From IMG/VR virus record IMGVR_UViG_2609459850_000002: 50,003 nt of DNA. The stretch is one strand, 5' to 3'. The stretch's first letter is position 1. Each line of letters begins with the position of its first letter. Source of the stretch: a virus (taxonomy: Duplodnaviria; Heunggongvirae; Uroviricota; Caudoviricetes). Below are positions 27,001-33,000 of the stretch, piece by piece. The position numbers were made by a program.

Positions 27001-30000
27001 ATTTCACCGTCAAAGCGTTTTTTGTCCCGTAACGCTAAAGTTACCGTAACTTTATTCTCAAAATTGCGGATCCCTTTCACAATCAGTTCATAGTTTTGAG
27101 TCATTGAATTACTCTCCCCGTGCAGCCTTACGACGGTCCTCTCTGATTTTGAAATACAGGTTAGTCAGATATGTCAGCAGCCCAAACAGCAGACTCCCCA
27201 GCACGCCTATTGCCGCCCACTGAGACGGGGAAACCCTGTCCAGCAACTGCAGGAACCAGTAGCCCGTTCCCACCGCTGACGTGGTGTATGACACACCTGT
27301 TGTGATTTTTTCCATCTGGTACATACCCCGTCTCCCGTTATCCGGAAGCTGACAACAATAAAAAAAGCCACCAGTTAAGTACTGATGGCTCTGATAACTC
27401 ATGCAGGCATCTCAGACGACCCACTGACACTACCGGTGAGTTTAACGATACCTTCCATTTGACTGGCTCACTTTTTATGATGATGCCGGTGCATTTATCT
27501 CCAGCACCAGACTTTCTATCTCAACGCCATACGCTGCATTTTTGGTAATATCCGTCAGCGTCAGCGCATTCAGCCCCAGTGTCAGACTGTCTTTTATGGC
27601 CTGGAATGCCGGGCCAGCCACTCCATTCAGTTTCGGAGTAACCGTGGCACTGCCGGCGGTGAACACCAGCTCCAGCGTCTGCCAGTCGTTACTGTAATTC
27701 CCGAACTCGCCCAACTTTGTGTTTCCGGCTTTCTTGTGATGCATCAGATTCAGTTTGCCGTCTGTGGTCTGGGTGAAGAACGACATCAGGAACGGGTTAC
27801 CAGTCCCGGTCATCGCCACGACGTCAGGTAACGCTACATCGGTATACAGATAAATTCCCAGACCGAACTGGTTGTTGGTCAGTGCGCCTGACAGTCGAAA
27901 CTTACAGCTCAGTCTGCCACCCCGTGTCAGCAGGGAGACTGCGTCATCCACCGGATGCATCAGGGACCAGGTTTTATTGCTCTGCTTGGTAACCTTAAAC
28001 ACACCATCTTCCAGCGCAACACTGCCGCCGGTGATGGTCCAGCCCTGCGCAGCAGCCTCTCCGGCTGTCGGCAGCAGGGAGACTGTACGAACGGATGTGT
28101 CACCATCAGACGGCCCCGATGGCGTGTCGCCGCCGGGCGAGGGTTTAATCTCCGGTGCGGTACCGCTGATGAAGGCGCTGGTTCGACCAACTGCGTTCAG
28201 AATAGCGGTTGCCAGGCGATCCGAAATAATGCCCCTGCGCGCCCATGAACTGAAATGTGTCGGACGATTTGACGATACCCAATTACCATTACTACGGGAT
28301 TGCGCGCCGTAATAACCTGCATCAGCAATATCCGGGTCTTCTGCCGGTAAGTTGGTGGGCGTGTTGTTGCCGTTACCGTCGGTCATGAACGGCACAAAGA
28401 AAACGTTGTCGCTCTCCCTGTTTTTGTACGCGCCGTAGACGGAGTCATACTGTGTGCCGTATGTGTTTTTCCAGTAATACGTCGTGTCGCCACAAATCCA
28501 CGGTATAACTGCAGCACTGCCGCCATGGCACTGCGCGTTAAATCCGGAAAGGTCAGTACGGAACTGCTTCAGCATGGCCGTGAACAGGTCCGGTTGCTGT
28601 GCGTAGGTGGCAGCGCTCATGTCAAATTCGCCCTGCATCCAGCACACCGCCAGCAACACATTTTTCGGGTTCTTCTGTAATGCCGCTTTGGTGCGTGCGA
28701 TCAGGTCCTGATATAACGGTTTACCCACACCCCAGCGTGCCGAATCCTGGCTGGCCCCCGTGTCCGCACTGAATGTCCCCTCCGCGCCCTGGGTGAATGC
28801 CGAACCACCACGACAGCATGGTACCAGCAGGATCCCCGCGTTATTCGGGATATACGGAAGCAGTTTTTTGGCAATATGTAAGCCCTGGCCGACACAGCCG
28901 TACTGCCCTTTGCTCAGGTCTGCCTTCGGATGATTCAGTGCGCTCATATCCTGAACATCATGCAGGCAGTGGTCTGCCGGAATGATGTCGTTAAATGCGC
29001 ATGCTTTACCACCGGGAGTCACTGTGTTGCGACGGGCCAGTTGCTTAATGCGTGGGTGGGGCGCATCGTAAGAATCCGGAAGCGGAAGCCCTTCACCGTA
29101 AGCCATGGCATTGGATTGCCCGGCCAGTACGATGACGTAGTACCACTCCGGCTCAGTTGCACCACTGACGACCACATCACCTTCTGCTGCAATCGCCTGC
29201 ATCAGGGTATAAGGGGTTATGGCCACCGGACTACCAAACGGCTGCCAGCCCTCTTTCAGTTTATGTGTCAGCTTTTCCGCAAGATCTGACGGCGACGCCG
29301 CCCTGACAACATCATAGTGTTTAAATGCCATGGTTCTTTCCACCATCTGAAAAATGATTCTTTAAAATACCTGACATGTAATACAGAAAAAACACAAAAC
29401 CATACCTTAAATAAAAACCTCATCATCAAGCAGATATGCATGGATAAACTACAAGACGAGATATAAACCACCCTGCATTTAAATAAACAATAAACAACAT
29501 CAGAAAAATAATTCTGCTCTATGGTTTACAATCAAAAATATCATTTATACTTTTCAGAACATCACCAGCAAGGCATAAACAAGGAAACTAAATGAAGTGG
29601 ATTGTGATTGATACAGTTATCCAGCCATCATGCGGAATATCTTTTTCAGTCATATGGAGTAAAATAAAATTAATAATCTGGTATCAATCGGATGCTTTCT
29701 TACCTCCTGAAAGTATATTTACACTGACTCACACAGGCATCATGCTCAATAACAAAGTGCTACCTGTAACCATTTACAACGTAGTACCATTCAATAAAAC
29801 ATTATGGAATTTAATCAAAAACAGCCAGGAATGCCCTACAAATACAGATAACGTATTGAATGAATGCTTTAATAACCGTTGCACTCTGCAAATATGTCCT
29901 TATGGGCTAAAACAACAAAGTCCATAAGCAGTTTACTCACATCTGACAAAATCAATATAAACAGCCCCTCCGGAGAGGGGCTGGAGAGTGGCGCTATGTG

Positions 30001-33000
30001 CCATTGCATGGTGCCGGGTGCCTCCCGGTGAATTCAGTACCAGCACCTGAATCCGCGATTATCCCATATACCTACTCGCTGATTACCCCTCCGCACAGGG
30101 GGATTCACCATGCGAAATTTTTTAACAAACTTCCCGCCGGCCAGACAATAATCGCCAGCCTGAATTATGAGCAACGTGGCATTTTACGGGAAAACTGTTT
30201 TCTGCAGTAAAAAGGCCCGCCGGAGCGAGCCTGGAAGGATAGCGGTCATGTGATGCCGGTTTCCCGGTAACTCAGCATCGGTATCTGAGTCAACGTTTTC
30301 TCTACTGGGTCATTTCCGATACGTTCCGCCTTCCGGCAGACTTTCATCACGTCAGAAAATATAGCACCCTGAGTAACAGGACAGTACTCAGAATTCAGGA
30401 AACTGTGACACATCCTGCACAGAAAAGCCCCTCCGGAGAGGGGCTGAAGTATAGCCTAATTTCTGTCTGTCGCATGGTGCCAGGGGCCTCCCGGTAAATT
30501 CAGCCTGTCTACTGAATTTGCATGTTCTCTGGATCATACACTTTGCCAGATGCCCCGCCGCTGAGGGGGATTCACCATGCGATGTAATTTTTAACAAATT
30601 CTCCGGCAGCCAGACAATCATCAAGCTGTGGAATTGTGAGGTATTTAAAAATTTCAACGGGTAACTGATACCCTGCTAATCGCCTGATGCTTTCTTTTTC
30701 AGCAACGGGAAAGCAACAACCACACACCCGCCACCAAAACACCATCAGACAGCACCGACATTATCCGGCTGCTGAAGTCCACCATCACCACCAGAAACAA
30801 CAGGAGTGCAACCACAGCTGCTTAGAAGGCAATTGCTCTGTCCGGCTGAGCTAACAACGCATGATGCAGATAATGGACCGCCATCGGGGACTTGAACCCC
30901 GCGCAGCCAGCTTCGAAGGCTGGCGCTCTATCCCGATGAGCTAATGGCGGTATGTGATGGTGGCCCTTGCTGGATTTGAACCAGCGACCTGGCGATTATG
31001 AGTCGCTCGCTCTCACCACTGAGCTAAAGGGCCGGAAGCAGAATAATAATGGTGCGTAATTAATTCTGCAATCTCATCCGTTTCAAACGATTAAATCCTG
31101 AACTTCCCTGACTGTCTGCTCAAAACGTCCGGTCTCCAGTTCAACGCCAATCGCACGACGCCCGAGCGCCAGTGCAGCTTTTACCGTTGAACCTGAGCCC
31201 ATAAAAAAATCTGCAACCAGGTCACCCGGACGACTGCTTGCGCTGATTATCTGCTGCAGCATTTCTGCCGGTTTTTCGCACGGATGTTTCCCGGGATAGA
31301 ACTGCACCGGTTTATGTGTCCACACATCCGTGTACGGCACCTGCGCCGTCACACCAAAATACCGCCGCAGATGCTTATATTCACTCTGCAGCTCCACATA
31401 CTGCCGGTTCAGTGACGTATACGTATCCACCAGCTGGTGGTGGGGCTTTTCCAGTTCACCGCGCTGATGTTTCTCTTCTGCCACCCGGGCAAACAGCGAC
31501 TGTAATTTCAGATAATCGCTTTCGTTCGGTAGCTGCCACTGACTGGCACTGAACCAGTGCGACACCATGTTTTTCTTTCCTGTGGCATCTGCAATCTGTT
31601 TTGCCGTTATCCCCAGGGCCGCGCGCGCATCACGAAAGTAAGAAATCAGCGGGGCCATCACATGCTGTTTCAGTGCACTGCCCTTCGCCGCATACCCGGC
31701 ATCTTTCGGACGATACGGCCCCTGATAATGTTCCGCGAACAGAATGCGCTCTGTGGCGGGGGAATACGCCCGCAGGCTTTCCTTGTTGCATCCGTTCCAG
31801 CGTCCGGACGGCTTCGCCCAGATAATATGGTTCAGCACACTGAAGCGTTCACGCATCATGATTTCGATATCAGATGCCAGGCAATGACCACAGAACAGGT
31901 AAAGACTTCCGACAGGTTTCAGCACCCGCCAGAACTGCGCCAGACACTGGTCCAGCCACTTCAGGTAATCATCGTCGCCCTTCCACTGGTTATCCCATCC
32001 CTCAGTCTTCACTTTAAAGTACGGCGGGTCCGTGACTATCAGGTCAACAGAATTTTCGGGTAACGACCGGATAAATTCCAGGCAGTCGGCGTTGATTAAC
32101 TCACAACTGGATATTTTTACAGTATTAAGCATGGATCATTAAGCCTGTCTCTGATAGGCTCATTCTGCTTTTGCGCAAAGCAGTGGGCCTGAGGTTTGCT
32201 TGTGAACCCAACGCATGAGCAGATGGCTGGTGGGTGCCCCTAACCCCCACCAGCCGCCCATTTACCACAAATAAAAAAGCCTTCACTGCGGAAGGCGTCT
32301 GTAACAACCGAACTGATAGTCTGCCAGACCCGCCATAACCAGCTGGGTCAGTATTAACTGGCAGCGTTCGCGTGAAAGGTAAGTATTCTGCGCTATCTCC
32401 CCGACTGTCGCCGGTTCGGTAACGCTTAATTCATTAAACACCACTCTGGCGGTTTCTGTCATATCCTGCTGTTTTAGCATGTCTTTTTCCCTTTTCCGGT
32501 TAACGTGACACACCAATAACTCTTGTCGAAAAAGCCAGCAAGCTGAAAGACAGGTATTCACCGCCACCAGCGCGTTTACTGTACTGACGCGATTTCAGTC
32601 ATAAAAAACCCGCCAGGCGGCGGGGTGTAAAAAATCTTCTAACGTCAGGCATAAAACGCCCATCGTTAGAGCAAATTTACCACAGATTCGGGAAAAATCA
32701 ACAACACTATCGCGTTACCCTCTTTAACTGCCGCTCCGCCCATGCCTCTTCAATGTCAAACCGAACCACCAACGTATCGTAAAAGCGTTTCACTGATTTT
32801 TTCCACGTATCAAGCGTGATAGCACTCGTCACTTTGCATATGGCATTAAATGCCTCCGTTGATGGCAGCCTTTCACAGCCACGACCACCACAACGCTGGC
32901 AATCTCTGATAACAGGCATACCACGTTTTACCGACTCTTCACGATGAATGGCGACACCACGCCCACGGCAATCCTTACAGGCGGTGGAAACCTCACCCTT

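Follow-up and report, generated by a model that had tools for sequence, protein, structure and literature searches.

A Stx2a-phage-like late control and accessory region in an stx-negative Escherichia coli lambdoid prophage

The DNA described here is a stretch of 50,003 nucleotides from a Caudoviricetes record (IMG/VR IMGVR_UViG_2609459850_000002), which we refer to in its full length as the window. Our subject is the late-gene control and accessory ("moron") region of the prophage that it represents, an E. coli lambdoid prophage without Shiga toxin (stx) genes. The late direction of the phage is the minus strand, and the order of elements was read from the open reading frame (ORF) listing together with Pfam, NCBIfam, ARAGORN and Rfam. 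On that strand the region runs Q, pR'/tR', a small ORF, a DNA methyltransferase (MTase), ileZ, argN, a slot, nanS-p, an S21-type holin, YdfR, a lysozyme and Rz/Rz1, and a domain or family match was found for every gene. The initial annotation of the sequence had proposed an Stx-phage-like late order between 27475 and 32132. All the elements that it named are present on the minus strand, but Q (33528-32707) and pR'/tR' lie just outside that range. The features from Q to the esterase are as follows.

33528-32707, minus strand: late antiterminator Q, 273 aa (PF03589, E 2e-49, 166 bits against a cut-off of 26.7)
32701-32603, minus strand: putative pR'/tR' region (alignment to lambda pR' and terminator scan)
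32480-32283, minus strand: 65-aa hypothetical ORF, annotated in E. coli NCCP15648, with only a weak TrmB-like match
32132-31083, minus strand: N6/N4 DNA methyltransferase, 349 aa (PF01555, E 1.7e-44)
31033-30958, minus strand: tRNA with anticodon CAT (ileZ type), intact (ARAGORN, Rfam, annotation)
30950-30874, minus strand: tRNA-Arg (TCG), argN, intact (ARAGORN, Rfam, annotation)
30873-29347: the slot between argN and nanS-p, 1,527 bp
30860-30819, minus strand: argO tRNA-Arg, 5' 42 nt only, truncated within the anticodon loop (alignments to Stx2a_WGPS2, MCJCHV-1 and Z0117EC0056)
30815-30699, minus strand: DUF3927 (TciB-like) micro-ORF, codons 1-7 missing (PF13064, 41.6-42.4 bits against a cut-off of 25)
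30610-30417, minus strand: STnc100 copy A (RF02076, 138 bits), with its own terminator at 30445-30426
30381-30206, minus strand: degenerate STnc100-like spacer element (RF02076, 30 bits), with a terminator-like hairpin at 30232-30213
30141-29953, minus strand: STnc100 copy B (RF02076, 132.5 bits), with its own terminator at 29983-29962
29592-29927, plus strand: iraL, predicted RssB anti-adaptor of the IraM family, 111 aa (NF007393, 162.4 bits against a cut-off of 121)
29346-27475, minus strand: nanS-p, predicted prophage sialate O-acetylesterase (DUF1737, SASA and DUF6645), whose start is placed at 29331 by the NCBI Prokaryotic Genome Annotation Pipeline (PGAP)

The 10.5 kb from 24501 to 35000 are 99.94% identical to an annotated prophage of E. 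coli NCCP15648, and the PGAP annotation of that prophage covers every gene of the 50-kb window, from the tail fibre to the exonuclease. The 1,527-bp slot occurs at 100% identity in many genomes and at a coverage of at least 80% in 1,006 of 5,426 complete E. coli genomes. This prophage region is already known: it is an ordinary, annotated and described stx-negative member of a lambdoid family that includes one Stx2a class. We put at about 0.9 the probability that the region is the late-gene control and accessory region of an stx-negative E. coli lambdoid prophage, with a backbone common to one class of Stx2a phages and a slot in which all of the cargo is of known kinds. What this analysis adds is small, namely the exact argO deletion junction and the tandem arrangement of STnc100.

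The control segment follows the lambdoid pattern. Alignment of the DNA directly after Q to lambda pR' showed that TAAATT and the pause element AACGATGGG are conserved, with a -35 element TTGATT at 32701-32696, a -10 element TAAATT at 32679-32674 and an AACGAT pause element at about 32667-32662. The terminator scan placed a tR'-like terminator just downstream on the minus strand, a GC-rich hairpin at 32624-32609 followed by a T-run, and the whole of pR'/tR' is nearly identical in the Stx2a phage Stx2_EH1910. A Q-family gene, promoter, pause element and terminator are all present and together make up a predicted lambdoid Q/pR'/tR' antitermination unit, which would be expected to give a short lysogenic transcript of about 65 nt from pR' to tR'. 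Such a constitutive RNA would correspond to 6S RNA in lambda and to the sRNA StxS in Stx phages; published StxS derives from a 247-nt Q933-type leader, whereas the leader here would span only about 65 nt. Another terminator, at 32296-32279, follows the 65-aa ORF.

The slot carries RNA genes. The initial annotation had described them as structured repeats, and they proved to be two full copies and one degenerate copy of STnc100, a known prophage small RNA (sRNA). Copies A and B both match the covariance model over its full length (1-206), above the RF02076 gathering score of 47 bits; they are 73% identical to each other and diverge in their inner segments. When aligned with four homologues, both keep a conserved scaffold with four covarying pairs, while the inner and 3'-linker segments are hypervariable. 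Copy B is syntenic with the STnc100 that lies downstream of stx2B (loci L002 4740-4955 and L009 5726-5941). The spacer at 30381-30206 was considered as a third copy and rejected, given its 30 bits, below the gathering score, and a fold z-score of -1.73. This spacer is conserved in the MCJCHV-1 prophage, and its fold is no more stable than those of shuffled sequences; it could represent either a decayed copy or another RNA.

In Stx2 phages, STnc100 overlaps EcOnc27/sRNA103, an Hfq-bound RNA downstream of stx2B (PMC12711010; PMC12370729), and overexpression of EcOnc27/sRNA103 alters fimZ and espA transcript levels (PMC12711010). STnc100 has also been described as kin to the PasD sRNAs, both being linked to Q and to sialate esterase genes (bioRxiv 10.64898/2026.05.13.724894). 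The copies in the window resemble these STnc100, EcOnc27/sRNA103 and PasD RNAs in their full-length match to the model, their site between Q and a sialate esterase gene and their 3' intrinsic terminator. They differ from the known STnc100 systems in being two tandem full copies with divergent inner segments.

Alternatively, the repeats could act mainly in cis, as terminator or insulator modules that silence the slot in lysogens until read-through occurs under Q, rather than as trans-acting sRNAs. A strong intrinsic terminator does close each copy, a consensus promoter was not detected in the DNA directly upstream of the copies, and on either side of them lie units under separate regulation, the late operon and the opposite-strand iraL. 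However, conservation with covarying pairs extends over the whole scaffold of about 200 nt, well beyond the terminator. Furthermore, the homologue downstream of stx2B (EcOnc27/sRNA103) is reported to be Hfq-bound and to change fimZ and espA transcripts on overexpression, and the related PasD RNAs are Hfq-dependent with many partners detected by ligating and sequencing interacting RNAs (RIL-seq). We therefore consider a mainly cis-acting role unlikely.

Downstream of copy B, the initial annotation had noted an AT-rich ORF of 111 codons on the opposite strand and called it an orphan. The ORF is indeed present on the plus strand, in a stretch of 31-34% GC, but it is no orphan: Pfam returned no match for it, and the NCBIfam model NF007393 together with comparison to the uropathogenic E. 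coli strain CFT073 identified it as IraL. It agrees with IraL of the CFT073 potB prophage at 110 of 111 residues, within flanking DNA that is 97% identical, and is 63% identical to K-12 IraM. The region upstream of the gene, at about 29347-29591, is AT-rich as well. CFT073 IraL binds RssB and stabilizes RpoS during exponential growth, and the start of its transcription was located by 5' RACE (PMC4045071). By homology, the protein encoded in the window, one residue removed from that of CFT073, would likewise be an RssB anti-adaptor that stabilizes RpoS. We also observed that the rare AUA codon occurs six times among the 111 codons of iraL, a gene about 1 kb from the phage tRNA with the CAT anticodon.

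The slot is followed by nanS-p. The PF08410, PF03629 and PF20350 domains of the esterase all score above their cut-offs, giving the three-domain architecture of NanS-p, and the protein matches NanS in PDB entry 3PT5 (E 1e-124) and the NanS-p C-terminal domain in PDB entry 6YP6 (E 2e-30). These matches bear out the proposal that the esterase is NanS-p-like. Its translation shows a GQSN block and the RPTH block IV; the RPTH block is reported for NanS-p of the Stx2a prophage 86 as well (PMC10462455).

We then compared the region with toxin phages. The Stx2a phage Stx2_EH1910 (LC567834.1) has the order ydfU/DUF968, rusA, Q (273 aa), a 198-bp ORF, methylase, ileZ, argN, argO, stx2A, stx2B, STnc100, iraM, nanS-p (yjhS), holin and endolysin. 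It shares with the window the gene order from DUF968 to the endolysin, ileZ and argN of the same type, and an STnc100 gene and iraM-family ORF upstream of nanS-p. By BLAST, 34229-30819 of the window is 93.35% identical to this phage over 3,415 bp. Alignment to Stx prophages thus placed the break inside argO, as the match ends exactly at 30819 in the anticodon loop; similarity is found again from about 30130, at only 73%, and extends over STnc100 copy B, the iraM-like gene and two-thirds of nanS-p from its N-terminal end. Further on, DNA identity is 93% for the holin and 92% for the lysozyme. At the amino acid level, identity to Stx2_EH1910 is 94.9% for Q, 96.8% for orf65, 95.1% for the MTase, 72.9% for the IraM-like protein, 60% for NanS-p, 98.6% for the holin and 93.2% for the lysozyme. 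Relative to that phage, the window has no stx2AB and a truncated argO, carries an extra STnc100 copy, the degenerate element and a DUF3927 remnant, and lacks the DUF1378 and DUF826 ORFs found between nanS-p and the holin of Stx2_EH1910. In published work on the diversity of the region from Q through stx and nanS-p to S, the Stx2a prophage of strain 00-3076 is described with a Q of 273 aa and a methylase of 352 aa (PMC10462455).

Set against what defines a Shiga-toxin-converting phage, the window has no stxA or stxB but does have the synteny Q-(MTase)-ileZ/argN/argO-[stx]-nanS-p-S-R, with argO as a fragment. A tblastn search with Stx2A and Stx2B against the whole window gave a best E of 0.6, and the slot contains no suitable ORFs, in agreement with the initial annotation, which had seen no stx A or B subunit. 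The possibility of an stx remnant in the window was rejected on the same tblastn result.

The initial annotation had gone on to picture a toxin-less relative of Stx phages whose cargo had been exchanged. The Stx2-phage architecture stands, with related Stx phages sharing the tRNA and nanS-p flanks and with an esterase of the NanS-p type; the exchange is not borne out in the form proposed, since STnc100 and iraM homologues coexist with stx2AB. Both Stx2a_WGPS2 and Stx2_EH1910 have one STnc100 copy about 75 nt after stx2B and then an opposite-strand iraM-like ORF. As their counterparts occupy a matching position and orientation after stx2B, the iraL ORF and one STnc100 copy are companions of the toxin genes and not their replacement.

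What did change in the slot can be read at its tRNA end. ARAGORN calls the CAT-anticodon tRNA as Met, and PGAP and the Stx phage records give it as tRNA-Ile (ileZ), which would read AUA. The tRNA cluster as first described was incomplete, as a third tRNA, argO, survives as a 42-nt fragment at 30860-30819. At the junction 30819|30818 on the minus strand, these first 42 nt of argO are fused to codon 8 of a DUF3927 gene, and the argO anticodon loop contributes a TAA that stands immediately before the remnant ORF as an in-frame stop. This remnant is annotated as 28 aa, from an ATG at 30785 to 30699, and has a possible GTG start at 30815. A TerB-family gene is absent from the window, which therefore does not hold the TciA/TciB pair (TerB + DUF3927), its DUF3927 gene being 5'-truncated. 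The 60-mer that spans the junction is intact in 325 of the 5,426 complete E. coli genomes, and for that reason we regard the junction as the mark of a successful lineage and not as a private lesion.

The nearest intact form of the slot lies in the MCJCHV-1 prophage (NZ_CP030111.1), in which DUF968, RusA and Q have protein accessions identical to those of NCCP15648; for Q, the accession is the same in the window, NCCP15648 and MCJCHV-1. There the methylase, ileZ, argN and an intact argO are followed by a terminator, a 432-bp TerB-family (TciA-like) gene, a 165-bp (54-aa) DUF3927 gene, STnc100 A, the spacer and STnc100 B. Compared with the window, MCJCHV-1 has 654 bp more, its opposite strand carries AsxR where the window has iraL, and its esterase is a pseudogene. 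In a three-way alignment the window appears as a clean 654-bp deletion relative to the MCJCHV-1 arrangement. The lost segment comprises argO nucleotides 43-77 with the terminator that follows, terB and DUF3927 codons 1-7. The position of stx2AB was thus probably held in this lineage by terB/tciA and a DUF3927 gene before the deletion, and because the deletion relative to the terB/DUF3927 form is clean, the immediate history is better described as decay of a non-toxin accessory gene than as a swap of toxin for cargo.

The swap envisaged by the initial annotation, namely direct descent from an Stx2 phage in which stx2AB was replaced by the repeats and the AT-rich ORF, is in our view quite improbable. 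It would account for a left flank that is 93.4% identical to Stx2_EH1910 and ends in argO just upstream of the stx2A start of that phage, and the truncated argO does imply an ancestral three-tRNA arrangement. However, three-tRNA clusters are also found in stx-negative prophages such as the CFT073 potB prophage, tblastn detected no stx remnant in the window, and Stx2 phages carry iraM/iraL homologues and an STnc100 copy alongside stx2AB. Moreover, terB and DUF3927 follow an intact argO in a prophage with identical Q, RusA and DUF968, so that one 654-bp deletion suffices.

The opposite notion, that the Stx-phage likeness is generic lambdoid synteny with nothing specific to toxin phages, fits the order Q-tRNA-STnc100-iraL-holin in stx-negative prophages of uropathogenic and commensal strains and the presence of the slot in roughly one in five complete E. 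coli genomes, but is highly improbable given that a subset of Stx2a phages shares the 273-aa Q allele, the small ORF, the methylase of 349-352 aa and the tRNA block at 93-97% identity, that the Stx2a prophage of strain 00-3076 is reported with the same Q type and the 352-aa methylase (PMC10462455), and that the Q/MTase module does co-occur with stx in Stx2_EH1910.

Several points weigh against the account that we prefer, that of an stx-negative prophage on a backbone common with one Stx2a class. The right flank (STnc100 B, iraL and nanS-p) has only about 73% DNA identity to the Stx2 alleles, so the backbone is a mosaic and not a single lineage. That the change was a deletion here, and not an insertion in MCJCHV-1, is judged from the truncated tRNA. 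On the minus strand, a consensus scan found no sigma-70 promoter upstream of STnc100 copy A or copy B. Lastly, for this strain, transcription, read-through by Q, expression of the sRNAs and the activity of IraL are all presumed from homologues.

With these reservations, the region would work as follows. In a lysogen, by homology to lambda and Stx phages, pR' would fire constitutively and transcription would halt at tR'. Upon induction, Q would allow RNA polymerase to pass four internal terminators into the methylase, the tRNAs, the slot, nanS-p and the lysis cassette. The iraL gene would be expressed independently in lysogens from its own promoter in the AT-rich opposite-strand DNA, and independent expression in lysogens may hold for the STnc100 copies too. 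Both paralogues are probably trans-acting and Hfq-dependent; the family is reported to bind Hfq. The phage tRNAs could supply decoding of the rare AUA and CGA/CGG codons. As for the slot itself, the 654-bp deletion would have left it without the 3' portion of argO, the terminator next to it, terB and the first 7 DUF3927 codons.

Across relatives, the layout is tRNAs, a first cargo, one or two STnc100 copies, a second cargo on the opposite strand, and nanS-p. The first cargo is stx2AB, terB with the DUF3927 gene, a toxin-antitoxin pair with tciA, or about 500 bp of unrelated DNA; the second is iraL, an iraM-like gene, AsxR or AgvB; and nanS-p is intact, truncated or pseudogenised. The CFT073 potB prophage, for example, has the order DUF968-RusA-Q (822 bp)-tRNAs-DUF3927-STnc100-iraL-holin-YdfR-lysozyme, but differs from the window in that an IS200 follows Q, a methylase is missing, argO is intact, STnc100 is present once and nanS-p is reduced to a DUF1737 stub. 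In close relatives the iraL position is taken by AsxR (MCJCHV-1, L007 4700-4752) or AgvB (PPyecE_EH1910, L004 5962-6023), and a protein regulator of RpoS thus alternates there with RNA sponges (anti-sRNAs).

The Stx2 phages and MCJCHV-1 share argO and the terminator that follows it, and diverge about 40-50 bp downstream, where stx2A or terB starts. Because the boundaries of divergence fall at the argO-terminator and STnc100 blocks, homologous recombination in shared blocks is suggested to shuffle the accessory genes. A bolder version, which we offer as doubtful, is that the argO-terminator block and the STnc100 scaffold are recombination anchors that bracket the toxin slot; that stx2AB, tciAB, toxin-antitoxin pairs and extra sRNA copies are interchangeable cassettes; and that the retained tandem STnc100 and iraL form a coordinated module that re-tunes host RpoS/Hfq networks in toxin-less lineages. 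If true, this would explain the persistence of the prophage type in roughly 6-19% of complete E. coli genomes.

Late regions of the Stx-phage type, with nanS-p, STnc100 and iraM/iraL among their genes, are no marker of toxigenic strains. The iraL and STnc100 cargo is also carried by toxin phages, and the lack of stx between the tRNAs and nanS-p is the common state in E. coli prophages, with a slot that evolves through small deletions and recombination at conserved RNA-gene blocks. The Stx-phage architecture could be recognized from sequence alone, and the importance of the region beyond annotation is small.

The features that flank this core, upstream of Q and in the lysis cassette, are listed here.

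34958-33912, minus strand: DUF968 protein (Pfam)
33899-33525, minus strand: RusA (annotation)
27324-27109, minus strand: S21-type class II holin, 71 aa, with a dual start at Met1 and Met4 (PF04971, E 2e-32, 111 bits)
27104-26760, minus strand: DUF1327/YdfR (Pfam)
26416-25883, minus strand: phage lysozyme (PF00959, E 1e-23)
25324-24773, minus strand: Rz/Rz1 (Pfam)

The N-terminus of the lysozyme, GLSAAVLALIAAGAPA, is rich in Ala and Gly and, by inspection of the sequence alone, resembles a signal-anchor-release (SAR) domain. In the 150-nt gap between nanS-p and the holin (27475-27325), a terminator-like 12-bp hairpin with a T-run lies at 27392-27364 on the minus strand; the PasA and PasC sRNAs have been reported at this position in prophages of enteropathogenic and enterohaemorrhagic E. 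coli. Between the holin and the lysozyme, a 90-aa ORF on the plus strand (26522-26794) overlaps the 3' end of ydfR and is annotated by PGAP as hypothetical in NCCP15648 and CFT073. Elsewhere in the window, other Rfam families score above their gathering scores: sok at 37673-37848 on the minus strand, next to hokD, and, on the plus strand, DicF at 46899-46950, isrK at 47184-47260 and C4 antisense RNA at 47285-47372.

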